Source of the DNA: Raillietiella orientalis | Lineage: Eukaryota | Direction of reading: 5' to 3' | NCBI GenBank assembly: GCA_036172245.1 | Contig: JAYWIR010000047.1 | Span: 558,001 to 622,000 of the forward strand | Length of the DNA: 64,000 nucleotides | Shown: positions 20,780 to 49,800 of the stretch, piece after piece | Position numbering within the stretch: position 1 is the stretch's first letter | How the letters are laid out: each line of letters starts with the position of its first letter | Made by a program: the position numbers and the translations under genes | Notes under the pieces: generated by a model | Database searches by the model: none | The model's input: only the letters and a program-made list of their open reading frames with translations | What the model was told of the DNA's origin: nothing

Positions 20780-23700
20780 AGGCGAGCGGTTCTTCAATGC
20801 TCCTTGAGGACCTCCCTCCCCTCCAAAAAAAAAAAAAAAAAAAGACTCTCCAGGACCTCCACCTTTGGGTCATCCTATACATCGAGTCGTCTGGGGAAGA
20901 GGGGAGAGGAGTTGAGCTCATCGCATTCGCTGGATCAGTAGACGCGACCAGGATTCGCCTCGTGGGCAAATCGCGTCGCGCCATCTCTCCTCTCGAGCGC
21001 TCCGCTTTGCGCTTCCACGAAGACGGCGAACTCTGCCTGGCCTGGACGAAGTCAGGGAGGAAACTCTGGCGGAGGTCCGCAGCGATCCCAATGTGCAAAT
21101 TGGTCGTGGGAGCTGGGTACAGGGGACGAAAGACAAAATGAACCTTCTGGTAGCTGCTGATTCCCTCTGAAGTTTCCCTCAGGATGGCTGGCGCTCGCTG
21201 GAACGGAAAAAGAATAGAGTCTCATCCGGTAAAGCGAATGATTAGGAGACCTTTGGGCCAAAAATGACCTCAAACCTATACTCAAACTTGAGATGGGTGA
21301 CAAGTCCGACTTGCTTGAAAGCTGAAGCTCGGACTGTCGGATCCATGAGCGCCCAGTGGGCCCACATTGGTGAGCGGAAGTGGAGTTGTGCCAAACGTGG
21401 AGTCACGGCGCCCGATGCGACGCTCATCAGATCCCACGAGAAGCATTGGTTGCTATGGACAGCAGGACGGTGGCCATGGAAGTCTGTATTAGGCAATGAC
21501 TCACCTCGCCTTGCACCTACTGGCCCTGAAGATGGATGGCGCTCAGGCGTCGAGTCTATGTCCAACCGCCAAGACAGAGTCGTTCCTGCCTTCCGGAGGC
21601 GTTCCGGAGGACGGCAGGTTCCTCAGTTTCCGGCGAGTAGGAAGGTCGCAACGGAGAGCGCAGAAGAAGGACGCCGGCGCGAGCTCGCATGGAGCCCCTC
21701 AGGTCTTGGAGGTAGTGGCAAATACTCCAGTGAGATCCCGGAGGTCTGATGTGGAGGAGGGTTTCCATGCGAACAGCCAGTCTCGAGGACTCCTCTTTGT
21801 GTGCCAAGGGCACTTCACCTCCTTCAGCGCGGCGTCGTTCCTCGAACCCTGGCCTCCCAGAGATCCTGCTGTGAGTGCTCTCGCGGGAGCAGCAGTTCGT
21901 CTGGATGAGGAATGGAGACTGCCAGCTCCCTGCATTTCACTTTCTCCGCCTCTCGTTTTCCAGACGTGCCTCATGATTTCTAAAAGCTCAGGAGACATCG
22001 GGAAGAACGACTGGCTCCTCACCCAGGAGCATCAAGAAGGGTTGGAGTTATGAGTCCACAGCAGACATCTCCAGCGTTTTTTTTTTTCGCTCCTAGCGGT
22101 GGAAAATCCAGTGAAGGGGGCGTTCCTCATGCATCCTTCCCCATCCCTCCAGCCCTTAGAAGTGCCTGCCTCCAGGGATTGGCCTCCGTGGGGGGCGGCT
22201 ACCCAGCTGGTGGTACCTCCGGTAAATGTCGCGGGAGAGCTGGGCGTCGTTGAAGAGCGCCATCTCTCCCTCGCTGTAAAAGATTGCAGCACTTCATCCC
22301 TCCTTGATTCCCAGACTCCTGCACGCTCCTCGATGGACTCCTCAGGACGTGTAGTGTACAACGGCTGCGCTCGCTCGTTTTCCGTCTCCCTGCTCTCCCC
22401 AACTTCGTCAGGAGGAACGCGACATGGAAGATCGACGACCCGTCCCACGCCTCCTGGCATTAGTTATGGTTGAGGCAGGGGCTCGATCCCCTGCCCCGCC
22501 CCTGGTACAGGCTTATTACGAGCCACTGGCTCTCGTGGCTCCCGAGTAGCTCCTTGATCTGCGCCACTGCTACCCTTGATGCCCGACCGAGATTGGGACC
22601 GAGTGCAAACGATTCTTCCTCAGTGCATTTGACCGGAAACGTTCCCGGAGGGCGCAGCCCAATTCACAGGAAAGCTGAGCCTTCCTGAGTCTACAGGTCT
22701 TAACCTGTCTTCTTCCTCCATTACGCTCACCCATTGGCCTCTACCCCAGTCGTCTTCGGCTTCGGGTCGAAACACGCAAGGAGAACTGCGCACTTGGCGC
22801 TACTTCGAGGCGACTGCGGTCAGGGCGGCAATCCCTCTGCAGCGAGAGACCTACCACTGCAGTGCTTTCGGGCTGGCCTACGAGAAAAGCTGCAAATATG
22901 GGGCGCGTGGTAGCGGAACGTTTGGGCTGGACAGCTGCGTTTCCTTGGGCGACCGCTTGTTCTGGGTCCGTGGGCGGTTCCAGTGATCCGATCCCCCCTT
23001 TTCCCGGTGGGATGAACGCTGAACGGTGCAGTACGAGATTTCCTCAACGCAAAGATTGTCGGTCTTCGAGGACGATCCTGGCATGTTTCTTGGACGGGAG
23101 TCGAGGCAAATGCTCTTCATGCTCCATGCTTCCAAGAGCCCAGTCCAAGTCCACGTCAAGCGAGGCGGCGATGACTGGGATGTGGAGGCATGCTGTTGCG
23201 CGTAGCAGCGGCAGTCTCAGAAGCTGCGGGGAGTTCCGCGTCATTTGTCCCCCAGTCTTGACGAACGCACAAGCCAGCCACATCAGAACCACCACACTCA
23301 ACGAGCTAGTTCTGAAAATGCACAGGAAGACGTGGCCAGTCACGAAAGGAAGGCTACCGGGCACTCTTCTAGCGCTCCTCCGACAAAGCGTGGGTCACGT
23401 CTAAATGGGGACAGTCGTGACGTTTGCAGGAGCATTTCCTCTTTCCACGCTGAAGGGGAGGAACTGCCGGAAAGGTCCGCCGAAGGAGAAACTGATGTTT
23501 TGCCGGCAAAGCGCTCACGGGGGTGGGTGAGTCAGCGGGGACGACTGCACACCGGAGGCATGGGATGGCCGTTAGAAGAACAGGAGCGAAGAATGAAGGA
23601 GGCAAGGACAGTGACCACTAGGAGAGAAAGAAAGGATAGGAGCATGCGAAGGTGAACGAATGTAGGACGAAACACGTGATAAAAGGCAGAGACCGTCAGT

Positions 23701-27217: not shown

Positions 27218-29260
27218 GACCCGTGCTGGCGACCCTGTAGCTGCAGTCTCCGCGCGCGTGGTGCCAAGAGTCGCGCGTTCAAATCCCGCCCGGGGGAAGG
27301 GTCGACGCCGAGAAAGGGGGATGCGTCGTGGGTTCGAACCCCCCCTTTGCAAGATGACCCCAATTGGCCTACATTTTTTAAAAGGCCAGTAGCAACCTCA
27401 TGGGGAGATCGTTGCTATTGGCCCAGGATGACGTAATCCGCTACTTCCTTCCAGTCTTCCCTCCCCCCCCCCGGGTTTTCTTTTTTGAGGGTTCGCCAAG
27501 TGCTCAAGAAGACGACCCTGGAGGCTCACGACGCTCTTTGACATCGTCCCGCGCCATCCGAGGGTGGGTGCAGCAACCCTTCAAGTTAGGGGTGCCCGGA
27601 AGGATACCACCCTATGAATCCAGGAAGGGCTCCGGAGGAAGGAGTCCGCCTCTCTCTTACTCTTGGAAAAGAATCCCGAAGGGAACCCTCACTCTGGTTG
27701 CCTCCGAAGGGAACCCCAGAGGGCTCTCCGATTCCTGAAAGAACCCTGGAAGGTCCACTTCCGATCCCAGCCAGTTAGCCTTCAACCAGGGCCGCACCCG
27801 AGTATGGGCCAACCCGAATAGGAGTAGGTTTCGAGTTTCCCTTGCAAGTTGGCTTGGAGTTCGGCACTGGAGGGAGGCAAATGCCCCGCTGACTGGTCCG
27901 GATGGGAAATGGTCCCTTCAGGTCTTTCCAGAATCCAGGAGCCCTTTGGGATTCCCCCTCCAGTTGTGCAAAGGGATCCGCTTCTATCCTCAGGAGAATG
28001 GAATGGGGAGGGGACCTCCATCGCGTGCCATGGAGCTAGTTGATAGCTCCCTCGGGCGGTGCCTCTCCAGAGTCCAAGAAGCGCGCTGCTCCCTTCAGAA
28101 AAAACGGGAAGCTTCCCTTCCGGATTCCCTTCGGAGGAAGAAACGAGGAGCGGATCCTTGCCGGGGGTGCTTTCGGAGAGAATGAGGAAGAGGTGGCTCC
28201 CATCGGGGTTCCCTCAGGAGATAACCAGGGCGAGGATCCCCTTTGGGATTCTTTTCCAAGAGTAAGAGAGGGGCGGACTCAACTCTCCGGAGAATTCCCG
28301 GATTCACAGGGTAGTCCCTCTAGGGCGTCCCCTATCACTTGAAGAGTGGTTCACGAACGCTGTGATCCCAAGTGCCCCACCGAAAGGACTATTGCGCTGG
28401 AGTGAGCTGCTGGGAAACCTACAGGAAGACCTCGAGTGGCCCACAGAGCTGTAGAACAACCGGATCCTCCCCCTGAAGTGGCCGAAGTCGGCACTTCTGC
28501 TGTTGCACTGGGGTCTCCCGTGCAACGCCCGCCGCTCTCACTGGACTCGGGGCACAATGGACCCAAACTGCTTCAGGTGCGGGCAACGGAAATCCCAGCT
28601 CCCGCACCTGCTCGTAGACCGTGTCGCCCTCCGGTCCCTGTGGTTGCCTTACGCAACGCCCCTTGGTGCACCCACGGACAATGCCAGAGGCGCCTCTTCG
28701 TACACGATGCCCTTTTGCCCGACGCATCCCCAGCAGCTCTTTGCTGCCTACGTGGGAATGTGGCGGTCTGGATCTACGCGAGCGGAGGACGGCGCGATAG
28801 GGACGCCATCTGCCCTTCGCCCAGTGTGTCCTGCGGATGGCAGCAAGATGGTCCCACCTGGAGCATACTCGGATAGAACTTGCCGGCATCCTGGAAAGGA
28901 TGCAGAGAACGACCTTCAGCTCCCGGTGATCCCTTCTCTAACCCTCCCATTTTTTTGTATATATAGTTTTTTTGTTTTAATTTTATTTCTGTTTGCCACC
29001 CCACCCCCTTTCCGGCCGGCGTGACTGGGTGAAACCTCGCCGGCCTGCGTGCCGGTTACTCGGCAGGTTCCGAGCATTGTAGGACGTTGTAGGGTCGATG
29101 ACCCTACACATGTATGTTTATTTTTTATAATAAACGTCCCGGCGTGATTGGGCGATGAACGTATAACTTGAAGAGTTGACATGTACCCTCTGGTAGCGTA
29201 GGCGATGCCAAAGAACTTGGCGAGCCCCGAGGCGAACGGCTCTCGAGTACCTGGCTAACT
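27218..29260 (+). mobile_element. Compound Y locus: head with two B boxes, nested inverted Y copy, plus-strand Y body split by a Tx1-like insertion
   Basis: B boxes CGTTCAAATCC 27276 and GGTTCGAACCC 27331. Minus-strand Y at ~27440-27815. Plus-strand Y at 27820-28347, resuming at 29162-29260. Confidence 0.75.
28348..29161 (+). mobile_element. 5'-truncated L1/Tx1-like retrotransposon inserted in Y
   Basis: Decayed zinc finger DPNCFRCGQRKSQLPHLLVD; AATAAA-hairpin end; 15-bp TSD TAT(C/A)ACTTGAAGAGT at 28333-28347 and 29162-29176. Confidence 0.85.
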
Positions 29261-30087
29261 TTTCCGCCCAGCGTGAGAGGTTCTCAGGGCGCCACCTGTC
29301 CGTCCCAGGAGGGGACCGGGAATCGAGGGGATTGGTGGCGTGGCAACACTAAAGGCGCCTTCTTCGAGAGGGAGCTGCGAGACCTTCCGGCTTTGTGGAC
29401 GCCCGCTCGCGGCGTCGGCGGGGCGCTCGGCAACGCGGGAAGGGGTGCCCGGCTTGGGCCGACCGGGAAAAATCCGGGAATGCCACCACTACTCCCGCGT
29501 CAGGTGAGGACGGGGTTGCCCGCGTTGCAGCTTGTGAGGAGGAGGGGAGGGACGGGTTCGCTGTTTGGGGACCGATGGCTGCAGTGGCAGGGTCTCGCCA
29601 CCGGCAAGCTCAGGTAGGGTGGGCAGAAATGGGTGTCTGGGTGGGGTGGGGGAGTGGAGTGGAGGAGGAAAGAAAGGTAGAGAGAAAGGAGGTCGCGGAG
29701 GCTGAAGAGAAAGAGGAAAAAAATCGGTCCCCTGGACGCCCACTGCGGTCGTGCCACGGGGCTTTCATTGCGGCAACGCGAAGAGATGGGAAAATTCCTT
29801 GCGAGACTGCGAGCGCCGCGAGCCGTGGAGTGGTGACCCACACTGCCATTCGGGGATCCGTGGATGCCACTCTTCAAGGGTCCGTCGAACTCTTCCCGCC
29901 CGAGAAACGACAGCCCCTCCGCCCATCTCGCGCGTCCGGCGGCGCAGACTTTCACCTCGCTCCCAGCCCGGACCGCAGAATCCGTCCGCCCGGTCATCGC
30001 TCCTGCAGGGAAGCGGGCAGGGTGCGCGCAGACTCTTCGTCCATGGAAACAGCCCGCTTTGCGACGACCACCACCGCTCCCGGAGCC

Positions 30088-31300
30088 CGAGGCACACTCT
30101 GGCGGCCGCTCGGCCACAACCTCTGCCGGCGTGGCTCCGACCGTCGCGGGTTCGAATCCCTCCTGGAGCAAAGCATCAACGTTAAGAAATAGGGGGGTGA
30201 GTGTTGATTTCGAGTCCCCCTCCCCCCGCGAGATGTCGCTGGTTGCGGGTGTGGCACCGGTTGACACCCTGTCAGGCCGGGCGTTTATTTATAAAATAAA
30301 CATTAACAGACGTGGATGTTTATTTTATAAAGAAGCGTTTGATCCTACCACGTTACTTATAACTACGAGGAGGAACCTGCCGGGAACTGGCACGCAAGCC
30401 AGACGGGTTCCGGCGGAGTTCACCTCGGCAGCGCAAGGGAAGGGGAGACAAACAAAAAGAAAAAAAAAATAAAACAAAACAGTCAAAAAGTGGGCGGTTC
30501 GGGAAGGGATCACTGTGGGCTGGAGGGCGTCCTCTGCATTTTTGGCAGGATTCCGGTAAGTTCCTCTCAGATGGGGCCATCTTGACGCTGTCCTCATGAA
30601 GAGGACAGCAAAACAGATAATGTCCCTGTCGTCCTGGCCTCCTCTGGCATTGCTCCATGCAGTGCGGAGCGCGGATGCTCCCATTGGCTAGCCGGAATTG
30701 GGGTCCTTCTAGGGCATCAAGGAGCCTTTTGGGGTTCCCTTATCTGGTTATGCAAACGGAGCTGCCCCTCCATCCCTCTGAGGGGCACCTTCCATCGCGT
30801 ACCATGGTGCTGGTGGATCAATGCTTCTCCAGAGTGTGAAGAAATGCTCTGCCCCCTTGGGGAGCACCCTCCAGAGAAAATGGGGAGCATCCCTTGGGTG
30901 TTCTCTTCAGCGGAGAAAAGCAAGGAGCGGATCCTTTCCTGGGGGTCCTTCCACAGAACAGATGAGTAGTGGTCCTCTCCGGGGGACGTTCCGGAAAGAC
31001 TAAGAGAGAGGTTTCTTCATGAGACAACCAGGGCAAGAGTTCCCTTCGAGAATCCCTCCCAAGAGCAACGGAGGAACCCTTCCTCTGAAGCTCTTCCCGG
31101 ATTCATGGTGTGTACCCCTCTCCTGGGGTCACCCCTTATAACTTGAAGAGTTGACACGCACCCTTGGGTGGCGTGGACGGTGAAAAGAGCTTCGCGAGTC
31201 ACACACACACCGTAGGGAGGTGAACGGCTCTTCAGCACTTGGTGAACCAAAAAGAAAGAAAACCGGGAAAAAAGGAGCAGAAGGAGAAGCTGGAAGGGAA
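30088..31300 (+). mobile_element. Y copy interrupted by a minus-strand Tx1-like fragment
   Basis: TGGCGGCCG..GCGGGTTCGAATCCC (B box 30149-30159), second degenerate box TTTCGAGTCCCC (~30208). Body resumes at ~30670 (GGATGCTCCCATTGGCTAGCC) and runs through TAACTTGAAGAGTTGACACGCACCC. Confidence 0.75.
30261..30660 (-). mobile_element. Short 3' fragment of L1/Tx1-like retrotransposon
   Basis: Aligns with 39445-39850; terminal AATAAACGCCCGGCCTGACAGGGTG on the minus strand. The second TSD copy is not recognisable. Confidence 0.8.
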
Positions 31301-32150
31301 GCAGAGAAAATGGAAGAACCTGAAAGGGGTTCCATCGCTGGAAGGGAGCGTCTCCCGCTGCTCATCTTCCCAGACGTTCTTCCTGGAATGTAAGTCAGGC
31401 CACGGAAGATTCACTGGCGACTTTCGACCCAGATAGCCAATGGTGCCGCAGCTTCTTCCTCTTGCAAAACTGCCTTTGGCATTCGCCCTTTGCTGTCCAG
31501 AGCTGTTCCGCCCTGGGGGCGTCCGCGACACTCTCAGAGGCATGAACTGCGTCTCCGGTCTGGGTGAGTCGAAAATTCTCTGCGGTCCCCGCGCGGCGCC
31601 CTCGTCGCGAAACCGCAAGTTAACCTTCCCCCTCTACCCCCTAAACCCACTCTGTGACCGAATTGGAACCGAGACGCTCGGAAAGACACGGCTCGGAGAA
31701 GAACGCGCGCGTGACGAAAGCATCGGCGATCTCATTCCATTTGTGGTCCGCCCTGCGCTTCCATTCGGCTGATCTGAGATTGCAGGCTGAACATGGGGGT
31801 TTCTTTGCTCAGCGGCCCGCCTGCCGCTGGAAGGCGAGGACGAGGTGGTTTTCCGCAAGATCCTCCGGAGAGTCCGACGCGTTCCGTGCTCCGAGATTGG
31901 ATGCGGATCGGTTGTTTCAGAAACACGTGAGGACCCTACCGCACGCGCTAGGGTCCCCCCCCACCAACCCGCAGTGGGTGTACCTTTTTGCGCACTCTCC
32001 GTGGAGAGGAGTGGTGACGTTGTCCGTCTCGAGGGAAGCTCCAGCGACAAAGGAGCTGGAGAAGGAAGGAGACGCATGCTGTTTCCTATTCTCCCGAAGC
32101 CATCCGGCCGCGGTGACCGGGGTGACGTGACACCACACCAACGGGCCCCG

Positions 32151-33237
32151 AATGGATCTCTGCCGCCCAACGAACTTTGAAGCCTGGCGGCAGGAACCGT
32201 TGCATGGCTGGGCAAAGCACCAGGATGTTTCCCTCCTGGAACTCCGTTGCGCTCACCTCTCCCCGTACTGCACGGTGGATGAGGTGTGCAACAGCCAGGA
32301 GAAGTGGATCCGCCTGGCCGTCACCCCCCTCGCCGACGCACTGTCAGCCCTCAGGGCAAGAGATGACAGCTGCGAACCGGCGAGATGGGAGGTCGCCTGC
32401 ACCATCGCAGGAACAACACGACCTATTGGCGGCTGGAGGACTTGCGAGCTGGCGGACGCCTCCACGCCTTGCCACGTTCCGAAGGGACTCCTTCGGTGGA
32501 GTGAACACTTAAGTGTGGCCCCCGAAGAACTTGTGGTCCCTCCCTCCTGTTTGAACACTTCTGTGTTCCCTCTGAACTGGAAACAGGACGTCATCATGCT
32601 GGTGCATCGCGGTTTCCATCGCAACCAGCGGACGAACCGTGTTTCCGGGGGAGTTGCCTCCCCGAACTGTAAGCGGTGCGGGGAAGTGGAAACGCTCCTG
32701 CACCTGCTCCTGGACTGCGGTGTCCTCCAAGGACTGTGGAGGAGGCTGGCCTCAGCTCTCCTGCACCAGGGGGACATCGCGAGGGACTTGATGCGCCGCT
32801 TCTTCACGCCAGGCGGCCTGTCTTTGGGTGCTGTCGTTGCAACCGTGTGTTGCACCCGCGCCATCGACAAGGCCCACCGAGAGTTGGAGAAGCTGGCCAT
32901 CCTTCGTCAGCCCACCGGATTAGCCAGCGCAAGCATGTCGTTGGCTGCCGAGTGGGCCCATCTGCCACAGGACGTAAGGAGAGAGATCGCCGGCATCCAT
33001 CGCCGGTTCTGAAAGGAAGGAACGGCCGAACCAAAGACCCCTGTCTCCTGCCCTCCATATTTTTCTTTTTATTTTTTATAGTAGTGTATTTGTAGTCCCC
33101 TCCCTCCCGTTACGGACTTTCGGCATACCGACCTGCGTGTCGGGGATCCCACCATCTTCGTCTCTTGTTTTTCCCTTTGTCCAGGAACTCTGTTCCCGGA
33201 TAGTTTTTAATAAACGCCCCGGCGCACCCGGGTGATA
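32151..33237 (+). mobile_element. 5'-truncated L1/Tx1-like retrotransposon with an intact 286-aa C-terminal ORF
   Basis: ORF 32152-33012 with CCHC finger SPNCKRCGEVETLLHLLLDC; terminal AATAAACGCCCCGGCGCACCCGGGTG; perfect 14-bp TSD ACCAACGGGCCCCG at 32137-32150 and 33238-33251. Confidence 0.9.
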
Positions 33238-34155
33238 ACCAACGGGCCCCGTCGTCACCGTTGCCAGGGCTTGACAGATGCCTCCTTGTCGGACGATCCT
33301 CCTCTTCGACGTGGACGCAGCCAAGGAGACCACCGGAATAGAGGGAGGAAGGCTGCAGCAGCACCAGGGATTGCGAAAACATCGCTAGGTCCGCGTTGGC
33401 GGTCGTGCGGCTGCGGTGCGCGCGGCACCTGGGTCGTGGAGGTCCTCATCCGCCCGGGGATGCATCGAGATCGAGAAGCGGAGGGGGACCGTTCGTTGTA
33501 GGTTTCGATTCCCCCCACCTCCACCCACACGATGGCGTGCTTGGCTTGCGGACTCCGGGAGCGGCACCGATGGGACGCGTGTCCGCAGGGACGCCCCCGC
33601 TGACTGACTGGGATTTGGAGGTTTGCAAGCCCCTCCGGAGTCCTTCCAGGAATCCGTCGGACTGGTTCCCTTCGAAGTTTCCCTCCAGTTGTGGGATGGA
33701 GCCGACCCCCCCTCCCCTCCTTGGGGAAACCATGCTTCGCTCCAGGGAGCTGTATTTCCCCCTGGGGATGAGGTTCCCCTTCGGGGTTCTCTTCGGCGGA
33801 GGGAACAGGCAGAGATTCCCTAAGGGGTTCCCCCTCCCTCGAGTGAGAGGAATGGTCTCCTTTCTCCGGAGCCTTCCTGGATTCGTTGGGTGGTCCCTCG
33901 GAGTTGCCCCGCGACAGAACTACACACCCTCAGGTGGCGCAGAAGAGCTTTGGGGGCCACCACCATATGGCCGCATCCTGCAGCCCCTCTGATGCTCCTC
34001 CGCGGAGGCGAACTGTGTTCGAGCGATGCCAAACCAACAGACCCGTTGCCACCGTTACCAGGGAGACCCACCCCTGCGTGCTTTCCAGATACCTCTTTGC
34101 TGGAGGATCCTCTTCGACGTGGGAGCAGCCAAGGAGACCGCCGGGATTGAGAGAG
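33238..34155 (+). repeat. Two copies of a ~110-bp repeat ('Z') flanking a Y copy
   Basis: 33238-33345 and 34030-34155 share ACCAAC.G.CCCGT.G.CACCGTT.CCAGGG and TCCTCTTCGACGTGG..GCAGCCAAGGAGACC. A weaker relative lies near 39015. Confidence 0.7.
33387..33955 (+). mobile_element. Y copy with empty insertion site
   Basis: GGTCCGCGTTGGCGGTCGTGCGGCT head, GGTTTCGATTCCCC (~33501), GCGGCACCG (~33561), body GGACGCCCCCGCTGACTG.. to CACACCCTCAGGTGGCG..AAGAGCTT. Confidence 0.7.
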
Positions 34156-36549
34156 TCGGTTGGCGGCGAGAGTCATCCCGGGCAGTCACGCGGCCCGATC
34201 GGGGAGGGAACTCTCGGACGATCGCGAGTGACGCCCCCTTCCCTATCCTTCGATCCGCTCCCTCGGGAATCACGTCGAGTGCCGAGACCCGGTCCATCCC
34301 GTCCCTTACGCATCTGCTTCTGTATTCCCCCATCCCAGCTGCAGCAACTTTGCTCGCACGAACAACCCGGAGGCAACCCGAAACGGGGAAGTCTCTTTTC
34401 CTCGGAATTCTGACCCGTCGTGACCCCAGACTTTACTGGTTGTGGCCGAAGAACTCATTTCTCGAGTCACGCACGCCTTCCCGTTCTCTTCGGTACTCGG
34501 ATGTATCGGAAGAGCTCCACCCACGACGGGCCACACCACCGGATGCTGAGAAACGCGCGAGATTGGCCGCCGAAAAGAATCCCGAAGCGAAGGTGCTGAT
34601 CCTGTCCAAAGGGTAAGGTGCATCTTCCTGGTTTTTGCTTTCCTGTTTCGAGTGAGCAAGAACCAGATTTCGAGATTCGTCGCTGGGGAAAGGGGGATCA
34701 GAAGGTCAGCTGATGCGACCTAATTGCCTTCCTCTGGCTTGACTTGAGCCAAGAAGTCAGCTGAGAGGAGGGAAGAACGGCTCTCCTTCCCTCCTCCTCT
34801 CTCTCTCCAGGCGTCATCTTCCAAGCTTCGTTACCCGTATTTGAGAAGCTGTAAAGATGGAAGAAGGCAGCAAACACGGTTCGGGATGGAGGGCTCCGTG
34901 CTCTGCTGGATGCAGATGACAGCTGCCTGGGTGATCGGAGACTCTCTTGCACGGGTTTCCCGGGCGATCCCCAGAGGACGAAAAACTCGCCCACCAGCTG
35001 TTGCCTAGCACACGACCTTGCTCCCCAGTCCGGACCACGACGCGCACTCCGTTGCCCGAGCGGCTCATCGCAGCATCCGCTCCCTCCGAAACAAGAGCTC
35101 TGAAGCAGGCATCAGAGCTCATCTCCGATCGACGGAAACTGCTTCCGGGTTCAGCTCACCTCAGCTCAATGGACCGGTCTCAGCTGGCATCTTGAGTTAG
35201 AAACCTGAGAACCTGATTCGGAGGAACTGCGGTTTCTTCGCTGCTCTTTTTGTTCCAAACAAAAAAAAAACGCATGATTTTATCTCCTTCCTGGAAATTT
35301 TTTTTCTTTTCTTTCCATGGAAGCGACGAAGCGGATGAACGTGCGTGACGTCAACGGTGGTCGCCAGAAGGAAAAAGGGATGTTCCGTGTTTGTGTCGCG
35401 CAGAGGATTGGAACCGCGGCGCGATTACCAAACGGGCAACTGAGGATGGTCGTCACGACTTTCCCGGGAGGAACTGCGGACGCGTCTGCCTTTCGGCTAG
35501 TGACGGCTCGAAAGACGATTCTGCAGCCGGTGGGGAGAGGAAGAAGAGCCGCCGTGGCGGGAGCGCTTTTCCAACTCGGTTGCTGCCAAGCAACCGGCGC
35601 TTCTGCACGGCGGCAGCCCGTGGAGATTTTCGTCTCGGCTCATCTCTTTCGCCTTCTGAGCTTGCAAAGCGGGAAGCCATGTTCCGCGCTTGAATGTCGC
35701 CGTTGCCTCCTCTTTCGTTCTGGAATGAAAGGTTCTGCGGACAAAGCTGGACGAGGTTGTTCATTCCCGGAGAGAGAACAAGAATAAGAAGAAATCGATT
35801 TCTTCGTTTCCTCGGACGGGAAGGACAGCGCGCGGCACCATCTTTGACGGATCCGAGAGGGAAACGCAACCTCCCAAGCAGAGCGTTCGGGCTCTTCGCT
35901 CGGAGCTGCGGGCAAGGAGAATCGAAAAGCGGATTGGCAGTGAGAATGTCAAATCAACACGGACGCCAACACGCGGTCCAGCCACTGTCTCCGAGGATAC
36001 GTCTAAAAGAATGGTGTCGATCTCGGGGATCGACGCAGGGAAACCAAAGCCATCGCGCGAGCGGGTGCCCAGAAGAAGCGACGTGGATCGCATGCCTGCA
36101 AGGCGCACACGCGCGTTCCCGATCCCGCCTCCAGTGGGAACTCCACGGCCAGCAAGCAGGAACGAACAGAAGAAGCGGCGCGGAAGGAGAACAAGAGTAG
36201 GTGGCCTCCGACCAACCAGTCCCGGAGAGCGGCATGAAATCCCTCCCGGAACCTGTCGCATCTTCCTGATCGAAGGCACATGCTCCTCAAGCAGGAAAAC
36301 GGCGCAGCGCCGGAATCGGAAGGGAGTTCCCGGAGAACTTGGAATCCCTGGCAGTCCTTCAGAATAACCCAAACGAAGCCGGGACATGTGCCGAGGGGAT
36401 GCCTTCGTAGCCTCCGGCCAAGATGAACGGCGCCCGCGATGACCACTGACGATGGACGCACCCTCCTCTTTTCCTGCCGGTGGAGAGTTCCCGCAGGGCA
36501 TTAGCTTCAAGTAACGAGAACTTGGATGAAATTTGGTCCCATGGGTTAC

Positions 36550-37745
36550 CTTTTCTTCTAGCAGCTCTGATGTCCCTGCTCTGAAGACAGCCGAAACGGC
36601 GGACCGGCATGTTCGTGGTCGATCTGTGGTCAGTCGCTCTCAAAAATTCCAGCAAGAAAGAGGCACAGATGAGACCAACCGATGCATTGGGAATTGTGAG
36701 GTCCTGCATACCTGCAGAGGCACGAAACGCCTCTCCACCGACTGACATTCCTGTGTCACCCCACACCCTGTTGTCCGGAGATGCAGCTACGACCGCTGCA
36801 CTCCTACAACAACCGCTCGCTGAAGAACGTCATCGTGCAGCCCACCCCACGTGGGCGGAAAGAACCTCTCTAGCCGCAGCAATACTCACCTTTAGGGAGG
36901 ACCTGAGCAGTAACCAGCCGGCCAAATGGGAGGTCAGTTCAAAATTGGTCCCAGTCAAAGAAATTAGGTTGTTGGATCACGGGCCAGCTCACTGACGCTG
37001 AGACCCCAAATGTCCCAACGAAAGAACTATTGCGCTGGAGTGAGCTGTGATCCTCCCCCTGAAGTGGCCGAAGTCGGCACTTCTGCTGTTGCACTGGGGT
37101 CTCCCGTGCAACGCCCGCCGCTCTCACTGGACTCGGGGCACAATGGACCCAAACTGCTTCAGGTGCGGGCAACGGAAATCCCAGCTCCCGCACCTGCTCG
37201 TAGACCGTGTCGCCCTCCGGTCCCTGTGGTTGCCTTACGCAACGCCCCTTGGTGCACCCACGGACAATGCCAGAGGCGCCTCTTCGTACACGATGCCCTT
37301 TTGCCCGACGCATCCCCAGCAGCTCTTTGCTGCCTACGTGGGAATGTGGCGGTCTGGATCTACGCGAGCGGAGGACGGCGCGATAGGGACGCCATCTGCC
37401 CTTCGCCCAGTGTGTCCTGCGGATGGCAGCAAGATGGTCCCACCTGGAGCATACTCGGATAGAACTTGCCGGCATCCTGGAAAGGATGCAGAGAACGACC
37501 TTCAGCTCCCGGTGATCCCTTCTCTAACCCTCCCATTTTTTTGTATATATAGTTTTTTTGTTTTAATTTTATTTCTGTTTGCCACCCCACCCCCTTTCCG
37601 GCCGGCGTGACTGGGTGAAACCTCGCCGGCCTGCGTGCCGGTTACTCGGCAGGTTCCGAGCATTGTAGGACGTTGTAGGGTCGATGACCCTACACATGTA
37701 TGTTTATTTTTTATAATAAACGTCCCGGCGTACCCGGGCGAGAAA
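36550..37745 (+). mobile_element. 5'-truncated L1/Tx1-like retrotransposon
   Basis: PAKWEV motif (cf. PARWEV in the 32152 ORF), zinc-finger remnant and AATAAACGTCCCGGCGTACCCGGGCG end. 37049-37731 matches 28463-29145. Confidence 0.8.
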
Positions 37746-39284
37746 CCCATACCTTGTTGTTGCTCCAGCGTGTTGCACAAAGCAACATGCAAGGATCCGC
37801 TTGGGATTTCCCTTAAGCCACGTTGTTCTGCATGAACCCCACGTTACACGGCGTGACTCCTAACTAACCCCTCACTGATCTCATGAGAGCTCTGTAGCAC
37901 GCAAGCAACAGATGATGGGGGCTAGTCGTGCGGGCTTGGTGTATTCTTCTACTAGGGTCATTGATTTCGACCAAGAGAGACTCGTGGTCTTTGCAAAAGT
38001 GGTAACGCAGGATTTTGCCTTAGACCATGAAAGTCATCAAGCTCTTTGGATTTCGGAAGTGTCCGGAATACGGAAGGTCAGAGATAAGGCAGTGATGCAG
38101 AGAGAAACGCAGGGGGATTCTCGCGCGCGCTGCAACCGCCATAAAGACGTTTTGATGACCTACACAAGGAAACCTCATTTGAAGCGGCCACCCTGAGATT
38201 GTCTCAAGACCCCAACGTCTTCACGGAAAATGGCGGTCGATGGAGACACGCAACGAATAGGTTGCCAGCATCAGGAATCACCCGCTCCGTCCAGAAACCC
38301 TTTCTATCGAAAACGTTCGGACCTGACTCGGAGAGGAAAGAACGGTGTAAGACCTTTCCGTGGGTTCCACTCAGGCAAATGAAGATGTCTGGAACGGAAA
38401 GTCCTAAACAGGCAGAAGTCCAAGCAGATTCTGTGTGTACCTGCTTCGGCGGTACATATACTAAAAATGGAGAGATGTGGTGATGGTGCAAAACCACGCG
38501 AAAGAGCTTGGAGAGCGGATGGAAGCGACTCGGTAACCACAGTCTGCATGGTAAATGTACACTCGTGTGGTGTAACTACCACCGTCCATATAATAAGTGC
38601 GTCTACTCAGTGAACACGCTCCCTAAATTCAATAAACCAACCACATCGTGAAAGAACTATATTCAGAACGGTCCTCACGCCCGTTGCCTGGATGAAATGT
38701 CAGTGAACCCTCGGTGCTGATTGGTCGTGGAGTTGAGCGCCAAATCGGAACGGTGACGCGATGCCACTTCGCTTTGAACGCGGTGAAAAACGGGAGAAAA
38801 CGGGACTGGGACGAACTTGGTGACGCAAGCTGAAGCGCAAGCAGGCAGGGATTCCTGGAACGACGCCGAAGTGAAAGCAAAGATCGGAGGGCCGCTGGAA
38901 ATGCGATCGACTCGCGAGCTGCCCTCGGTATGAGCAAGTATCGATTTTCCCTTTGTAGGATCGCTTCAAAACATATCTCTGCATCCGGAGCTGCAGCAGC
39001 AACAGACGAACAAATGCCGAAACCAATGGGAACGGCTCAATGCTCGCGGGGACGAGGTCCCTGCCTGCTCCCCCCTGCAGATCCTCCACTGCCGCCGCCG
39101 ACCGGGAGACCCCTCTCGGCGATCAAAAAGCCATCGAGGATTTTTGGAGGAGAATCCAGTAACGATTGAAGCTCGGTGTCCCACCAGGAAGACTCGGGTG
39201 CGACACTCCAGAAATAAGGGGTGTGGCGGGCTCCCTGAACGACCCTTGGTTCAAGATGTGAGAGCTGTCTCATTTCGAGCTTCC

Positions 39285-40960
39285 TACGTTGGCGGCTGTG
39301 TGGCTACGGTCTCCGCGCGTGGTACCAAGCATTGCGGGTTCGAATACCCGTAAAGGATCGACGGCAGAGAAACGGATGTATCATGGAGTTTCGAGTTCTC
39401 CCGCAAGGTGATGCTGGTTGGCTTATATTCGGGTGAAGCATTGGCTGGCACCCGGTCATGCTGGGGCGTTTATTTATAAAATAAATATAGATGTCTGTGG
39501 AGGACGTTTGATACTGCTGCGTTGCTTATAAACACGAGAAGGGACCTGCCGGGAACTGGCACGGAGACCAGCGGGGTTCCCCTCTGCAGCACAGGGGAAG
39601 GGGAGACAAACAAAAAGAAAAAAAACAAAACAAAAAACGTAGTCAAAAATTGGGAGGTGGGGTGGGTGGTTCGGGAAGAGATCACTGTGTGCTGGAGGGT
39701 GTCCTCTACAACCTTGTAAGGATGCCGGCAAGTTCCTGTTTCAAGACTCCGAGGTGGGGCCATCTTGACGCTGTTCTCATGAAGAGGACAGCAGAATAGA
39801 TGGCGTCCCTGTCGTTCTGGCCTTCTCTGCTCTGCAGAATAGATGGCTGCATGGAGCAGCAACGATCCCGCCACGTGAGCAGCAAAGTGCTGCTAGAGAG
39901 GGATGCGGCCGGCAGTGAGGGCGTTGCGCAGGAAAAGGTCTTTAAAACTTGTCTGGCATTGCCGCCGGGGGTTCCAGGGGTCGCAAAAAAGCGTCATCAA
40001 AGGGGTCGGAGGGCAACACAGTCCAATAGGAGGTGCGGGAGGGATTCCCGCTCCCCGCACCTTGCACAGTTTGGATCCACACACACCTGTGTCCAGTGAT
40101 GCCAGCGGGCGTTGTACGGGAGACCCCAGTGCAGCAGCATCAATGCCGACCCCTGCCACTTCAAGGGGAGGGTGCGGTGTTCATGATCACCGTGGGCCAC
40201 TGCAGATCTTCCTCCGAAATACCCAGTAGCACACCCAGTAGCAAAAGTCCATGAGGTAGAGGACTCGGGGTCGCAGCGTCGGTGAGCTGGCCTGTCGTCC
40301 ACTCTCCCGGGCCTCTTCTCCTTCCGGAGATGTCCACAATAACCTCCCATCTAGCCGTGAGGCTGCTGTCCATGTGCTCCCTAAGGGAGGCAGCGCGGCG
40401 TTGAGGGAGGTTCTGCCTGCCCACGCACTCCTCGCGGGATCTTCCAGGATCTCCCAGAGCGTGCAGTTGCTATTGCAGTCCAAGCATTGGTGGAAGCCGG
40501 AAACCGGATGCCCGCCGTTGACTGGCCGGGATTTGAATTTGACCCTCCGGGGCCCTTCTAGCAATTAAGTAGAAAATTCCCTTGTGGGTTCCCCTTCGGT
40601 TGTCAACATCGAGCCGTCACCCTCCCAAGGGAGGAAACATCGATTCAGTACCATGGAGCTGGTGGACTGATACTTCCCCAGAGTATCCAGAAGAGCGCTT
40701 CTTCTCCAAAACCTTCATAGAAATTTGGAAACGTCTTTCCGGGGTTCCCTTCTGAGGAGGAAACGAGAAGCGGTTCCCTCTTGGGTTCGCTCCGGAGAAG
40801 AAACAATGGACTGGCTCCCTCCGGAGGTCCACCGGAGAGAATAACGAGAATAGGAGGAATAGACTCCTTCCTCTGGAGCTCATCCTGGAGTCATAGGGTG
40901 GTCCCTTCCCGGGGCACCCTCTAACGTGAAGACACGCACCCCTGGGTGGCATGGAACAAT
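39285..40960 (+). mobile_element. Y copy interrupted by a minus-strand Tx1-like element
   Basis: CGTTGGCGGCTGTGTGGCT..TGGTACCAAGCATTGCGGGTTCGAATAC (B box 39337), second box TTTCGAGTTC (~39389). Body resumes after 40490. Confidence 0.75.
39445..40481 (-). mobile_element. 5'-truncated L1/Tx1-like retrotransposon inserted in Y
   Basis: TARWEV motif, finger DPNCARCGERESLPHLLLDC, AATAAA-hairpin end; 9-bp TSD AAGCATTGG at 39436-39444 and 40482-40490. Confidence 0.88.
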
Positions 40961-43731
40961 GTTAAGCAACAAGAAGGCAGAAAGCGCCTTCTTGGTCTTG
41001 TTGGTGCGGCCCCACGCTTCGTGAATGTGCGTATGCTCCCTGGGCACAGACAGCAGCCACCTCCTCGACTGCGCCATGACGGAAAGGAGGGGACGGATGG
41101 ACGTTGGATGGACTGGCCAGATCCGACCCTCCCAGACCGCGGGGAGAGTGGTGAGTATCGAGTGCTGCACGCCTTCTCAGCGGGCGTAGGCCGCCGCTTC
41201 CAGCGCTCACCGCCTTCAAGCCCCAGCACACAAGACGGAAGGACCAAGGGCTTGGGAAAAATGCAGCGTTGGATCTCGAATGCATCCCACCACGAGCGGA
41301 GGAATCGAAACGAGAAGCAGCGCTCTGCTCTCCACGGAGCCACGTCCGTTTACAGGGAGATTCTCTCCGCCTTCTCCTATCTCATCCACCAGGCAGCTCG
41401 GAAATTCGCCACATCAGGCGCTTCCCACGAGTCGAACTTCGCTTATCCGATGGACCGAGGGCGGAGAAACGAACCAACACAGGCCGGCGGCGGGGAAAAG
41501 GTCGCCAAGGTGACACTCCATGCATCCGATGCAGGGAGAGACATCGAAAGCAGGTCCTGGGGAGTGATGAGGGGCCTGCGGCAACATTTCAGAGCGAAGG
41601 AATCGGATGCTTCAGCGCACCACTTTTATTACTCTCCAGGACTCACACCAGCATCACCCAAACCGATCCATCTTCGCAATAAAATCACCATCAAAAACCA
41701 TCAGGAATAATGAACTTACTCTGAACTTACCTTCCGCGGATCATCATCCCACTCGACACCCTCCTCCTTAGCCTATCAAAAGTCCTGCATACGTACAGTC
41801 CCACCATCTGCGCACCCATTCACGTTACTAGACCATCCCCTCTCGAGCGCCCTGACATCTCATCATTTACCGCGACCTCTTTTCCACCATGCACCGGCTA
41901 ACTACGGCGAGTCGTCAAGGAGCGACGGGTGGTCACGTGATGAGGGCAGAGACGTTCGTGGAAACGCCGCGTGGAGTCTCCCCCCGAGATCACGCGGGAA
42001 GTTTCCCGACTTTTGCTTTACGCCCAGAGGCCATAACTCTGGTACTACGCTGAATGGCAGGAGGAAGAGGAGGGAGGGAGGGAGGGAGGGGGGGGGAGTA
42101 GAAAGAACGTTCGGCGGCATTGGTTGGTCTGTTGCCGCCGCATCCCCTTCCTCTGAAGCTCCACCTCCGGCCGCCGGCAACTCCCCTTTAATGCTCCTCC
42201 TGGACGGACGGCCTCAGCGGGTTCACAGGATGAGATGGCTCCGAAGAGGAGACAGATCTACTTGTCACTCCCAGGGAAAGGCCGGAGGGCAGCGAGCGAG
42301 CCGCATATCGGCAGCCATTGGCTGGTTCGTCTGCAGTCTTGGGGTCGGGGTGGGAAGCACCCAGAACCCTCGGTGCGATCCCACGCCCGGCGAGGCGAGG
42401 CGAAACTGCAATGAGAGGCGCCGGATCGCACGCTGGGTCGCGCGTTCCCCTCCCAGGCACGCTCCTTCCATTGTTGCGTCAGAACGGGAGTGCCAATCGA
42501 ATCCGACTTCCGCTTGTCGACGGGCGAGCGTGGCGCCCGCGTGCAGCAACGGCGCGCGAGGCAGCGAAACGGGATGTTTCCGCGTGAGACTCCAGCTGCA
42601 ACCGCGAAGCGCAGGGAGAAACATTCTCGCCTGGGGGAAGCTGACGGCGAGGACCAAGCGACATTTCTGTGAGCGGGAGTACGGGAGCGAGAAGGAGCAG
42701 ACGGTCGAGGCACACCATCCTCCAGGGTGTCTCGCCCGGGCGATCTGCCCGGAGCAGCAAAGCTGACGAACGGGCGGCGGGCGGGCTACGGGACCCTGCC
42801 CTGCCGACCATTGCACCGGGTTCCAGGAGGGGACGTCAGCGCCCGCGCCTGCTGTGCCCCCGGCACCTCCTTCCCCGCCGGATGCTGCCTGCCGGCTCGG
42901 AACAAAGAGTTGGGGGCAAGGAGAAAGCGCGTCACGCCCGAGCTCCACCTCTTCCTCTTTCTCCGATTTCCGAGGCGGATGGGAAAGCGCCCCCGGCCTG
43001 CAGCGCTCGGCACTCGGAAAAGCGAAGACGCTGACCTTGGAGCTGTCCCCTCTACACGTCGATCCGCGGACCATCCCCAACGAGCGAGAAAAAGAGCGCC
43101 CGGACTGCTGTTCCAAAAGAGGGCGATCAACTCCTCTCGGAATGGGGCCAGGAGCGTAAAGAAGGGAAAGAGGGATAAGCTCGGTCGTTCCTGCTCGGTT
43201 CTTCGCTCGCCTCCGCGCTCGCGAGTTTTCGCGAGAGCGGACGGAAGTGAGGGGGACGGAAATCCGAACTTCCCCGCTGCGAGCCTCGCGCGGCTTCGCC
43301 CCACGGACCGTTCCTGTCACGTTCCAGAGAGAGGAGCGTCGAGCTGTCGTCATTGCGCGCGCGCTCCCGGAAGCAGGAGGATGCCTCCTCCGAGGCTTTT
43401 CCTCCGCGGTGCGGACTGCGCGGAGTCCACCCTCCCGCGTGGGGCGAGTTTGTCTTGCGACCCTCCTGCAAGACATGTAGTAGCTGGTGTCCATGGTGAC
43501 AACCGTCTTGCTACAGACGAAGGACAAAGGAGGGGGGGGGAAGGACGAAAAGCAGAGGTTTCTTTTCTCTCCGAGGCGGTCTTGGGCGAATTTCCGCGAA
43601 ATTCACCTCAGAGGAATTTTCTCTCGTGAAGATCAGTCCACGTTGACGCCATTTTTTTCTGGAGGATTCCCTGAGACATTGAGGCTGAGGGGGTTTGGCG
43701 GTGGCCACGGATTGGCAGCGATGGCAATGAG

Positions 43732-44220
43732 TTTCCATGCCGGGGCGTCTACTCAAATTTACAGTAAACTCGCAAATTGTGGTAGGACACATGTGGTCCT
43801 ACCACGCTCGATCCGCTGTCTGTGGACCTGGCTGTTTGACGACGCTGCAAACCGACGAGGTTCACCGCGGCGGCGGAGAGGAGGGGGGAAAACAAAAGGA
43901 AAAATAAAGTTGATGAAATAAAACACACAAAAAGAAAACAGAGGGCCGTCGCTGGATGCCGACTAGATCGGTCCTGATAGCACCCAGGTGGGGCCATCTT
44001 GCTGCTACCCGTAGAAAGAGGAAGCGCACACTCGACAGCATCCCTGTCGGACGGTCCTCCTGCAGAGTCACTGCAGGCCGCCACAATCCCGCGGGTGCAG
44101 CAAACAGCTTCTAAGGCTGTGGCTGGCGGCAGGGCATTCCGCGTGAAGAAGAGTTTGAAAACGTCCCTGGGATTGCCAGCCGGGGTCCGTAGGGTCGTCC
44201 TAAAACGTTCCCACAGGTGC
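43732..44220 (-). mobile_element. Older 3' fragment of the same Tx1-like family
   Basis: Shares CAAGATGGCCCCACCTGG and the UTR layout; degenerate end AGTAGACGCCCCGGC; degenerate 13-bp TSD CGATG(G/A)C(A/G)ATGAG at 43719-43731 and 44221-44233. Confidence 0.7.
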
Positions 44221-46899: not shown

Positions 46900-49800
46900 A
46901 TGGCATCTAATATACCCCTTGGCCGCGTCTTGCACTCCAGAAAACCGAATTCTCCAGTGGCAATACAGGACTTTGAAGAATTCGAAAAATGCCAGGTAAG
47001 TCCATAAAAATTAGCACGCCCCCACGTGCCCGAATATCGATATATGATGGTACACATTTGTAAATGTCTGCAGATGAAACATTCTGTAAGTGCTGGTAAA
47101 ATCATGATGTATAGATTTGCATAGAACCGCCGTAACAAGTGGGCCCAGTTGATCTCGAACAATAAGCAGTTTGGCATAACAAAACATTTGCATCTGAATT
47201 CAGTTTTTAGCCAACAAGAGCTTAAGTGATCATCGTATATAAGCCCATTCGAGATTCGAGATTATAAATAATGTGAACTTTATCATTTACAGTTTTAAGG
47301 TAGTGTATTTGAAAGTTATTCAGTGAGCATACATATTTAAGATTAGATGGGATGATTATGATGATTTCTCCTTTCCAGAAGCATTAACAACGGCTTAGGA
47401 CTATTGTTATAATGGATATATATAGTCAAATATCTTCAATTTTGTATCACATAATTATTTATTTGTGTTATTTATGCAATATTTTTTTTGCAGCTGTTAG
47501 CAATCACAAAGGCAATAAATCCAATGGAATGTCCGGTAAAAGGCAAACATGTAAGAAGTATCCTTTGGGAAATGTAAAAAAGTTTGTGAAATAGTAAGAA
47601 AACAATATGAAAACTATCAAAGATTTTGACTCAAATATAAATGAGTGAATAATGTATTTGCATCCTCAAGTAATTTGATAAACATTCATTAGTACACATC
47701 TGCAATCTTAGGTTGCTCCTTTTGTATATTCATGATTCTTAATGATGATTAGCAGCTATCATTGGAACTTTTCAAGAAAAAGGTGGTGGTACGTTTTGGT
47801 CCATTGTACGCAAGTCTTTACCCCTTCAGGCAAATTGTATTGTGGCATGGAAATTCTGCCATGTTCTCCATAAAATTTGTCGTGATGGGCATCCTAAGTT
47901 CTTAAAGGATACTCAGAAATATCGGGACTTTTTACAAGATTTGGGCAAACTGTGGGTATGCATTTGTGTTGTCTGTGTGACTGCATGCTGGTAATCACAG
48001 TTTACAAGGTGTATTTGGTAGTTGTGCATAATAAACCTGGAGCATAGATGATATCATCTGAAATACAAAATGTATGGAAAATTATTCAATACAAAAGATA
48101 TTTCTTTGAATAGTTCTCTTTGGAGACGGTGACTGTTTGACATGTACAAGTGTATGTCTGTTTGCATGTGTTTTCAGGGACATCTGAAGGATGGGTATGG
48201 ACAGTTGATCCAGCACTATTGCACACTTTTGGATAGAAAATTAGATTTTCACCATAAAAATCCCCAGTTTCCTGGATCCATGCATTTGAGTGACAGTGAG
48301 CTCATCCAGATTGCTGAAGATAATGCAGACAATTAGTATGTGGAAAACAGTACATGAGGAAGTGCACTGACTATAGTTTCGAGATTTCAGCTGAGATGTT
48401 TGACTACATGGATGAAATACTGGGATTGCAGGCTGCAGGCAGGTCACCCTCAGGGGATGGCACACTGCTAATCTGGGAGCAGTGTTTGATTCACTCGATC
48501 AGTCTCGGGCGAATTCTATGACCAATGCGGGCCAGTGTCGTATTGCACCTCTCATCCCATGCATCATCGACTCCTCTCATCTTTACGACTATCTGGTCAA
48601 GATTTTATTTAAATTGCATGCTAGCATCTCAGCAGACAATTTGCGGGGACACCGAGAACGTTTCCAACAAGAATTCGTACTTCTGCAGAAATTTTATGTG
48701 ACCTGCAGTAACCTACAATATTTCAAAAACCTGATCCAGGTGCCCTTGCTTCCAGAGGTGCGTTCATCCATCTTTAGTATTTTTTTGATTAGCGTTTCAG
48801 CATCCACCGAATTTTTTAATTGCTTCCAATTTGAGTTTGCATGTTAGCCCTGTGGTGCAACTTCCTCCAGAGCCTGAAGAGGGTGTCTTAGTTGATACAT
48901 CATTTGTAGAAGAGTCTCTTCAGGATAACATGGACTCATCTGCTTCTCCAGAAAACAGGTAGGCTCACGTTGTATCAGCATGATGACAGGCATCTTTCAG
49001 TATTACAGAGGTGGCAAATCTTCAAAGTCAGGTTGATGCTTTGAAGACATGCATAAAAAACTTTCAGAGGATGATGCATGTTGCCTCTACCAAAAAAACT
49101 CAGCTTGAAAGGCAACTGCAAGAAAAGGTATATATCGTGTTTATTTAGTAATTTTTTTCATATACGGAGGATGCTTTTTAGGATGCACTCATAGAAGAAA
49201 TGCAGGAAACTAGACTGACTCAAACGCAGTGTGCACAGGATACTGAAGAAAAGCTCAAAAATTCTGAAAGTGAGTATGCAAGAAATCAGTATGTTTCATG
49301 TTCTCTCAGAAAAATTGCAGGGCGTGGAGGACAAATTTAACAAGCTGAAGGATGTCTACCAGCAGTTACGTGAAGAGCATATACGGCTTCTGAGGATGGT
49401 ACGTTCTGAAAGACCATGTGGAAGGGTTAATGGCAAGCTCAGAAAGCAGAGACAGACAAGCAGCTGCAACACATCAAGCAGCAAGATGATAGGCAAATTT
49501 TACTGGAAAAGTTGGCAGATTGCGAGTGTATCCTGGGGAGACAAACAAAGATCATAGAGGAGCTAAAGCTTGAGAAAGAATCGTTTGAAAGGGATCTCAC
49601 AAGCTTGACAAAACAGCAGCAATTAATGCAGATATCTACAAATGAACAAGTTGAGGCCATGAAAAGACAGCTGAAAACACAACAGGAAAAGGAAGCAGAA
49701 AATCAAAAGGACTGGGAAGCCAAGCTGCAAACATCAGAAAAACGATTAGAAGTATGTGAGATAAGTGATGACATCTAACAGTGTGCTGTAGGATGTTGCT

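Follow-up and report, generated by a model that had tools for sequence, protein, structure and literature searches.

A LINE found twice at the same nucleotide of a SINE-like repeat in Raillietiella orientalis

Site-preferring LINEs and the present locus

The R1 clade (R1, TRAS and SART) comprises site-specific long interspersed nuclear elements (LINEs) of arthropods and is noted for sequence-specific nicking. The described cases of Tx1-clade LINEs that target other transposons come mostly from vertebrates. Here we describe a 64,000-nucleotide stretch of the genome of Raillietiella orientalis (GenBank assembly GCA_036172245.1, contig JAYWIR010000047.1, positions 558,001 to 622,000 of the forward strand), in which 5′-truncated copies of one LINE group lie twice, in the same orientation, at the same nucleotide of a repeat resembling a short interspersed nuclear element (SINE), here called Y. 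The whole stretch is referred to as the window, and positions are counted from its first letter. The evidence comes from this 64-kb window alone, and the events at the Y site number two. The two copies, designated C and D, are probably separate insertions into old and diverged copies of Y. A preference of a LINE for one place in another transposon, of which this locus would be an example, is an already known behaviour, well described for elements of the Tx1 and R1 clades.

According to the cited parts of the literature, the Tx1 families Keno, Mutsu and Dewa insert into U2 small nuclear RNA genes, 5S ribosomal RNA (rRNA) genes and the spacer of tRNA-Leu arrays, respectively (PMC3706591, PMC4494074). 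In the cited part of the work on crocodilian elements, Tx1L is reported to target Tx1D, the crocodilian Tx1-Mar to target Mariner-N4_AMi, and Tx1-9_AMi to insert about 300 bp into Harbinger elements (PMC4494074). The crocodilian Tx1 families are described in the same part as preferring a Mariner family, long terminal repeat (LTR) elements, microsatellites or Harbinger elements (Kojima 2015, PMC4494074). What the initial annotation of this DNA had stated about Keno, Mutsu, Dewa and the TRE elements of Dictyostelium agrees with the cited parts of these sources and, for TRE5 and TRE3, of PMC5006619.

The LINE of the window is similar to the transposon-targeting Tx1 elements, as described in those parts, in lying repeatedly at one position of a mobile repeat, in the 5′ truncation of its copies and in a target that is not a gene. 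Unlike in the Tx1 cases described there, the target is SINE-like and carries a B box, is not a DNA transposon or an LTR element, and was hit in two events. With Keno, Mutsu and Dewa, as far as the cited parts describe them, the LINE shares a small repeat related to RNA genes (of RNA polymerase II or III; Pol II or Pol III) as its landing site and a probable recognition by sequence. The targets of these three families are functional multicopy genes or spacers, whereas Y is a decayed retroposon, the copies of which are 46–70% identical in pairwise comparisons by MAFFT. A zf-RVT-like zinc domain, reported in the cited part of PMC5563155 for the second open reading frame (ORF2) of TRAS-like elements of the R1 clade, and an apparently arthropod host would connect the LINE with the R1 clade. 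Unlike R1, TRAS and SART, it has no ribosomal DNA (rDNA) or telomeric target in the window. The location of a non-LTR element some 100 bp downstream of a unit with a Pol III B box is reminiscent of TRE3 of Dictyostelium, which in the cited part of PMC5006619 uses broad windows near live tRNA genes; the junction described here is instead exact to the nucleotide and lies in old, mutated repeats. An arthropod-like genome in which a LINE prefers a SINE-like target would provide a new case of a known behaviour, the literature not having been searched for SINE-targeting LINEs.

The shared insertion site, its host repeat and the inserted element

Copy C (30261–30662, minus strand) is 402 bp long and 5′-truncated, with its 3′ end at 30261. 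It separates the head of the Y copy Y3 (30040–30260, plus strand; nhmmer match to the left part of Y 30032–30261; B box 30149–30157) from the body and A-rich tail of the same Y copy (30663–31290, plus strand; nhmmer match to the right part of Y 30642–31275). Copy D (39445–40481, minus strand; 1037 bp, 5′-truncated, 3′ end at 39445) divides Y5 into a head (39230–39444, plus strand; nhmmer 39223–39444; B box 39337–39345) and a segment with the second copy of the target-site duplication (TSD) and the Y body (40482–41139, plus strand; nhmmer match to the right part 40473–41139). With a slash marking the junction, the sequence reads CGGGTGTGGCACCGG/TTGACACCC at C (30260/30261) and CGGGTGAAGCATTGG/CTGGCACCC at D (39444/39445). 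In a MAFFT alignment of the five Y heads both junctions fall into one column, which corresponds to CGGCACCGG/TGGAAG of the empty copy Y1. The site following CGGGTG is TGGCACCGG in Y3 and AAGCATTGG in Y5, each ending at the junction, and CGGCACCGG/TGGAAG in Y1. The distance from the first base of the exact B box GGTTCGAAT to the junction is 112 bp at C and 108 bp at D. Four Y sites are empty: 20314/15, 27868/69, 33568/69 and one near 27765 in an inverted fragment.

The two insertions differ at their ends. Copy D is flanked by a perfect 9-bp TSD, AAGCATTGG, at 39436–39444 and 40482–40490. No TSD accompanies copy C, on both sides of which Y continues colinearly and without loss. A LINE profile made without C aligns window positions 30662–30263, and a Y profile made without Y3 halts at 30262 and restarts at 30666, in both cases at profile position 82; the bases 30663–30665 (TGC) fit TGG of Y. 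A degenerate second TSD for C (TGGCATTGC, 6/9) was rejected because the LINE profile made without C spans those bases. The initial annotation, made from the letters of this DNA, had already placed both junctions at the same position of Y and given their distances from the B box, the common orientation, the unequal lengths, the clean 9-bp TSD of the longer copy and the missing second TSD of the shorter one. All of these observations are borne out by reading of the sequence, by the common alignment column and by the exact positions of GGTTCGAAT. The same holds for the empty sites it had located near 20300, 27862 and 33561, to which the inverted fragment adds the fourth.

Seven fragments of Y were found with profiles made from its copies (nhmmer). 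The Y tree is star-like, with none of its three inner branches well supported, and to judge from this tree and the low identities between them, the Y copies are old and separately decayed. Y shows features of a dispersed SINE with a tail: Y1 ends in a run of 19 A (20825–20843), Y3 has an A-rich stretch, and the loci of Y3 and Y5 share nothing outside Y. The exact B box GGTTCGAAT occurs three times in the window (20209, 30149 and 39337), each time in a Y head, and thus in three of the five heads; with one mismatch it is not enriched (13 found, 17.3 expected). No tRNA was detected in the window by ARAGORN at default settings, and Rfam gave none at E≤5. At a threshold of 80%, ARAGORN reports a plus-strand match ending at the arm of the B box in all five heads, among 51 matches in the window. 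On the basis of the B box and of these relaxed matches, an origin of Y from a tRNA is plausible, and the label tRNA-derived of the initial annotation is weak.

The LINE group was defined by self-BLAST and by a shared end motif, AATAAACGYCCC. With at most one mismatch this motif is found seven times in the window compared with 0.41 expected, and none of 100 shuffles reached seven. In all copies, AATAAA precedes a short, conserved hairpin (CGYCC...GGGYG), after which comes a tail of 4–8 nt. Six pairs are predicted for the hairpin (−4.95 kcal/mol), and the number of compensatory changes is 0; the hairpin is conserved, and its structure is a prediction and unproven. The copies have a common 3′ end and variable 5′ truncation (402, 814, 1037 and 1087 bp). 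The length of the TSD also varies, from 0 bp (C) over 9 bp (D) and 14 bp (copy five) to 15 bp with two mismatches (copy A). Conceptual translation yields the terminal part of an ORF2, which includes a CX2CX7HX4C knuckle. By these footprints, namely 5′ truncation, variable TSDs and zinc knuckle, the element is a non-LTR retrotransposon (LINE) of the type that uses an apurinic/apyrimidinic-like endonuclease and target-primed reverse transcription.

The best preserved coding sequence is an intact reading frame of 293 aa in copy five, covering the C-terminus of ORF2. Its knuckle reads C-KR-C-GEVETLL-H-LLLD-C, and it matches Pfam zf-RVT with an E value of 0.0033 and 18.5 bits, below the cut-off of 27.5 bits. 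An exhaustive HMMER search with this C-terminus gave three weak matches, all of them short proteins with zf-RVT above the cut-off, and 27 of 30 feature matches in the Atlas belong to zf-RVT clusters. A word-index search with the 293-aa sequence against longer proteins gave no match at E≤0.001. For domains, 258 ORFs were scanned, comprising all 108 of at least 140 aa in the whole window and the first 150 of the 226 ORFs of 80–139 aa in the first 45 kb. Neither a reverse transcriptase (RVT) nor an endonuclease (Exo_endo_phos) domain was found in these 258 ORFs; this is because all copies in the window are 3′ fragments, and it is not evidence against a LINE. As zf-RVT is also reported for the TRAS-like ORF2 of the R1 clade, it does not define the L1/Tx1 clade. 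The label Tx1-like is unproven.

Independence of the two insertions and the choice of the nucleotide

The coincidence of C and D might go back to a single old insertion that was copied together with its host, by retrotransposition of Y or by local duplication, and was later shortened in one copy by an internal deletion. The identical position and orientation fit this, and C and D are mutually the nearest LINE copies in the window (80% identity, against 64–66% to copy A). An approximately unbiased (AU) test also leaves a clade of Y3 and Y5 unrejected (p 0.25). The divergence of the hosts, however, is two to four times that of the inserts. C and D agree at 296/369 positions (80%) in the MAFFT columns filled in A, C and D, and at 313/366 (85.5%; Kimura two-parameter distance, K2P, 0.163) in a pairwise alignment. 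The corresponding values for Y3 and Y5, in two segments, are 95/150 (63%) and 315/537 (58%) by MAFFT, and 134/197 (68%) and 365/514 (71%) pairwise (K2P 0.43 and 0.37). Transversions number 21/366 in the inserts and 109/711 in the hosts; faster CpG decay in the hosts is therefore not the explanation. In the right part of Y, pairwise identity of Y3 is 78.5% to Y1, 76.8% to Y2 and 71.0% to Y5. The end branches of Y3 and Y5 in the Y tree measure 0.26 and 0.38, and a clade of the two is recovered in 2% of 200 bootstrap replicates. Outside Y, no similarity was found between the two loci (all matches ≤37 bp, E≥0.13). This excludes a segmental duplication, so that only a copy bounded by Y could be invoked. 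Both copies of the D TSD, AAGCATTGG, carry four changes specific to this host compared with CGGCACCGG of Y1 and Y4, and these states are lacking at the site of C, where Y3 has TGGCACCGG. Copy D therefore entered a site of Y5 that was already mutated. Since C shows neither duplication nor loss, neither of the two copies can be derived from the other by simple deletion; this would require a deletion with its end exactly at the border of the TSD. Separate insertions of C and D into old, diverged Y copies would best agree with divergence, flanks, TSD states and continuity, and we regard them as probable. The single duplicated insertion, which the initial annotation had kept as its alternative, appears quite unlikely. 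Ectopic gene conversion between Y copies could likewise have carried an existing insert to the homologous place. A tract of 683 bp, identical in copies A and B between diverged flanks, suggests that conversion, or an assembly fault, has occurred in this region. The inserts C and D, however, differ in length (402 and 1037 bp) and in TSD state, the flank of C keeps its own Y3 sequence up to the junction, and the 15–20% difference between C and D leaves no recent conversion tract visible. Conversion as the source of the shared position is thus hardly to be expected.

On the primed strand, the 3′ end of which primes reverse transcription, the sequence is CACCGG/TG at C and CATTGG/TG at D, and copy five, at a locus outside Y, has CGTTGG/TG. 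D and five agree at 7 of 8 site positions, and their loci are not homologous. Three of the six site-bearing Y copies (Y1, Y3 and Y5) have kept YYGGTG, and two of these are occupied; it is lost in the other three, none of which is occupied. We propose that one group of non-LTR elements may have hit the same nucleotide in two independent insertions, each into a Y copy that was by then old and diverged. The cause would be a sequence preference at the step of first-strand nicking or priming, for a primed strand of approximately CRYYGG/TG, which Y would happen to carry about 110 bp after the B box. An independent double insertion, most likely through such a short preference, is in our estimation reasonably probable. 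That the endonuclease or the priming step may read CRYYGG/TG, and how strong the preference might be, we infer from the three sites. Guidance by the Pol III complex would work differently: TFIIIC and TFIIIB bound to the internal promoter of Y would draw the element to a set distance downstream, as for TRE3. The junctions do lie 112 and 108 bp past an exact B box, and two of the three Y copies with an intact B box are occupied compared with none of the three without. TRE3 itself, in the cited part of PMC5006619, inserts about 100 bp downstream of Dictyostelium tRNA genes; its windows are broad there, for example 14–228 bp, whereas the agreement between C and D is exact to the nucleotide in the sequence register and the distance differs by 4 bp. 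The site in Y5 was already decayed when D entered, so that Y5 was an old copy, and the Y heads contain no tRNA recognised at normal thresholds. Of the remaining copies, A is found some 700 bp farther along Y, five precedes a Y head, and the other four are outside Y. Moreover, the insertion of five took place at the same hexamer plus TG outside Y, which favours a nick-site preference over Pol III tethering. The initial annotation had suggested targeting by sequence or through TFIIIB/C. Its first half gains from the shared CRYYGG/TG and from five, while the second is opposed by the exact register and by the copies elsewhere, and we consider it unlikely. A chance coincidence of two insertions among many nested ones in a transposon graveyard also has to be weighed. 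Eight LINE and seven Y fragments occur in about 27 kb, so that nesting is expected, and the presence of three of eight LINE copies in Y, which makes up about 10% of the island holding them, is a mild enrichment (about 0.04, binomial estimate by hand). If insertion were uniform, a coincidence in nucleotide and orientation within a repeat of about 750 bp would have a probability of about 1e-4 over all 28 pairs (estimated by hand), and even with insertion confined to the approximately 93 YYGGTG sites of the island, two hits on three copies of the Y site would still come to about 0.03. Chance is accordingly a very unlikely explanation.

Several points weigh against independent insertions through a sequence preference. 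The events are few: the Y site was hit twice and a non-Y site once, and the motif that should account for these three sites was itself derived from them post hoc. CRYYGGTG is not rare, with 19 occurrences in the window compared with 13 expected. The register at five is uncertain by 1–2 nt because tail and target overlap. The site of copy A (GTGAT/AG) does not fit the motif, and B and c44 are without a clear fit. The Y copies that bear the motif are the same three that have an intact B box, which confounds the sequence and the Pol III readings. On the question of independence, the star-like Y tree accompanies the unrejected clade of Y3 and Y5, and a shuffle control of the pairwise identities was uninformative (free end gaps, mean identity 0.74). 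The identical tract in A and B also counts here, as conversion or an assembly fault could make C and D look too young. The unshared flanks, the changes in the D TSD and the continuity of Y at C are independent of divergence and are untouched by this last caveat.

Microhomology of the Y site with the LINE 3′ end was considered as the cause and rejected: the score is 7.5 for Y1 and Y3 compared with a mean of 7.86 in 300 shuffles, and the D target has no match.

Strict site-specificity, with nearly all copies at one target, is not seen within the window: the Y site accounts for two of the eight LINE fragments, and the other six (A, five, B, c1, c2 and c44) lie elsewhere. As other copies of the group lie outside Y, the specificity is at most a preference. 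If this preference holds genome-wide, a SINE-like repeat would join the targets of sequence-preferring LINEs, and CRYYGG/TG would be a short candidate nick motif for an endonuclease belonging to a little-sampled lineage of animals. Elements of this kind bear on how retrotransposons find harmless landing sites. A more far-reaching reading assumes that an arthropod LINE lineage has come to specialise on one nucleotide of a Pol III-type SINE, which would offer a safe place to land and be recognised through an extended sequence or bound Pol III factors; a large share of the intact copies genome-wide would then be occupied in one orientation. With two events in one window, we consider this doubtful; if true, SINEs would be a new target class for site-specific LINEs.

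Further copies and the surroundings of the locus

The initial annotation had counted four LINE copies, whereas the window holds eight LINE 3′ fragments: c1, c2, A, C, five, B, D and c44, of which c1, c2, B and c44 are additional. Its third copy, in the 3′ part of a Y element with a 15-bp TSD, is copy A (28349–29162, plus strand) in Y2. The TSD does measure 15 bp, with two mismatches between ATCACTTGAAGAGTG (28334–28348) and ATAACTTGAAGAGTT (29163–29177); the corresponding empty site in Y3 is TTATAACTTGAAGAGTTGAC. The fourth, upstream of a Y head, is copy five (32151–33237, plus strand), which belongs to a related family and ends about 134 bp before the head of Y4. Its 14-bp TSD, ACCAACGGGCCCCG, at 32137–32150 and 33238–33251, was also described correctly. 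Copy B (36850–37745, plus strand) has its 3′ end at 37745, and its 5′ end is not fixed; a candidate TSD of 7–8 nt, CATACCT near 36707, would place the 5′ end at about 36715 and is within chance. Copy c44 (43736–44185, minus strand) is a diverged 3′ part with an altered end, c1 (17017–17060, plus strand) is recognisable by its end alone, and c2 lies near 24172. A TSD search for B, c1 and c2 with 11-mers and at most one mismatch gave nothing convincing.

A tract of 683 bp (28463–29145 and 37049–37731) is 100% identical in copies A and B, which are otherwise diverged. Upstream of this tract they are 86% identical over 59 bp and B lacks 53 bp present in A, and the terminal approximately 17 nt of their tails show about 6 differences in 15 positions. 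This points to a recent gene conversion or to a fault of assembly or polishing. Copy D carries the CX2CX7HX4C stretch of the ORF2 C-terminus with frameshifts. It also contains the 13-mer CAGAATAGATGGC twice (39792–39804 and 39835–39847), 43 bp apart, with 0 expected. The pair suggests a small internal duplication, which copy C lacks; the repeat was not reported by Tandem Repeats Finder. A metagenome scan with AATAAACGYCCCGGCG-N3-6-CCGGG gave 10 loci, which were rejected, as none resembles the LINE beyond the motif. The best metagenome match to the window is 32 bp at 84%, at the end of an apparent bacterial gene with a terminator-like hairpin.

The fullest empty Y copy is Y1 (20102–20859, plus strand; B box 20209–20217), with the site CACCGG/TGG at 20314/20315. 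Y4 (33361–34083, plus strand) has CACCGA/TGG at 33568/33569 and a decayed B box. Y2 is 5′-truncated (27802–28348, plus strand, continuing after copy A), with the empty site CACTGG/AGG at 27868/27869. What the initial annotation had taken for the head of Y2 is mostly a separate, inverted and 5′-truncated Y fragment (27520–27815, minus strand; nhmmer 27801–27706 and 27693–27520), with the empty site GCCCTGG/TTGAAG, in its own orientation, near 27765. This fragment and Y2 adjoin head to head, both with empty sites. Just upstream of the pair lies Y6 (27219–27375, plus strand; positions 54–214 of the left Y profile in nhmmer), a head fragment that stops short of the site.

The LINE and Y copies are situated in a GC-rich island of about 42 kb (2000–44500, 50–61% GC) between two genes, and the fragments described make up roughly one quarter of its length. 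One flank carries WASP-like exons with WH1 (796–1134), PBD and WH2 domains, together at 796–2069 (plus strand). On the other side follow HIP1-like exons with ANTH (48416–48844) and I/LWEQ (50696–51163) domains (plus strand) and a thioredoxin-like exon at 51714–52184 (minus strand), all recognised as Pfam domains in ORFs. The HIP1-like exon has its best homologues in arthropod proteins, at 64–68% identity. Within the island, the 258 scanned ORFs contain no protein domain except the weak zf-RVT and an INT1_R3 match below the cut-off at 14067–14390 (E 0.0079).

A fragment of eukaryotic large-subunit rRNA lies at 20947–21782 (plus strand), about 100 bp past the poly(A) of Y1 and a long way from any rDNA unit. 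The match, of 312.8 bits, extends over model positions 665–1888 within only 836 nt. It may represent either a retro-pseudogene of rRNA or a fragment that was captured. Self-BLAST also detected an inverted repeat at 10784–11137 and 11679–11319, with arms of about 360 bp at 80% identity and a spacing of about 180 bp, which may be a foldback element or resemble a miniature inverted-repeat transposable element. In the AT-richer part of the window, self-BLAST found the direct repeat pairs 58649–58838 / 60974–61163 and 59407–59581 / 60788–60970, with an identity of about 84%.

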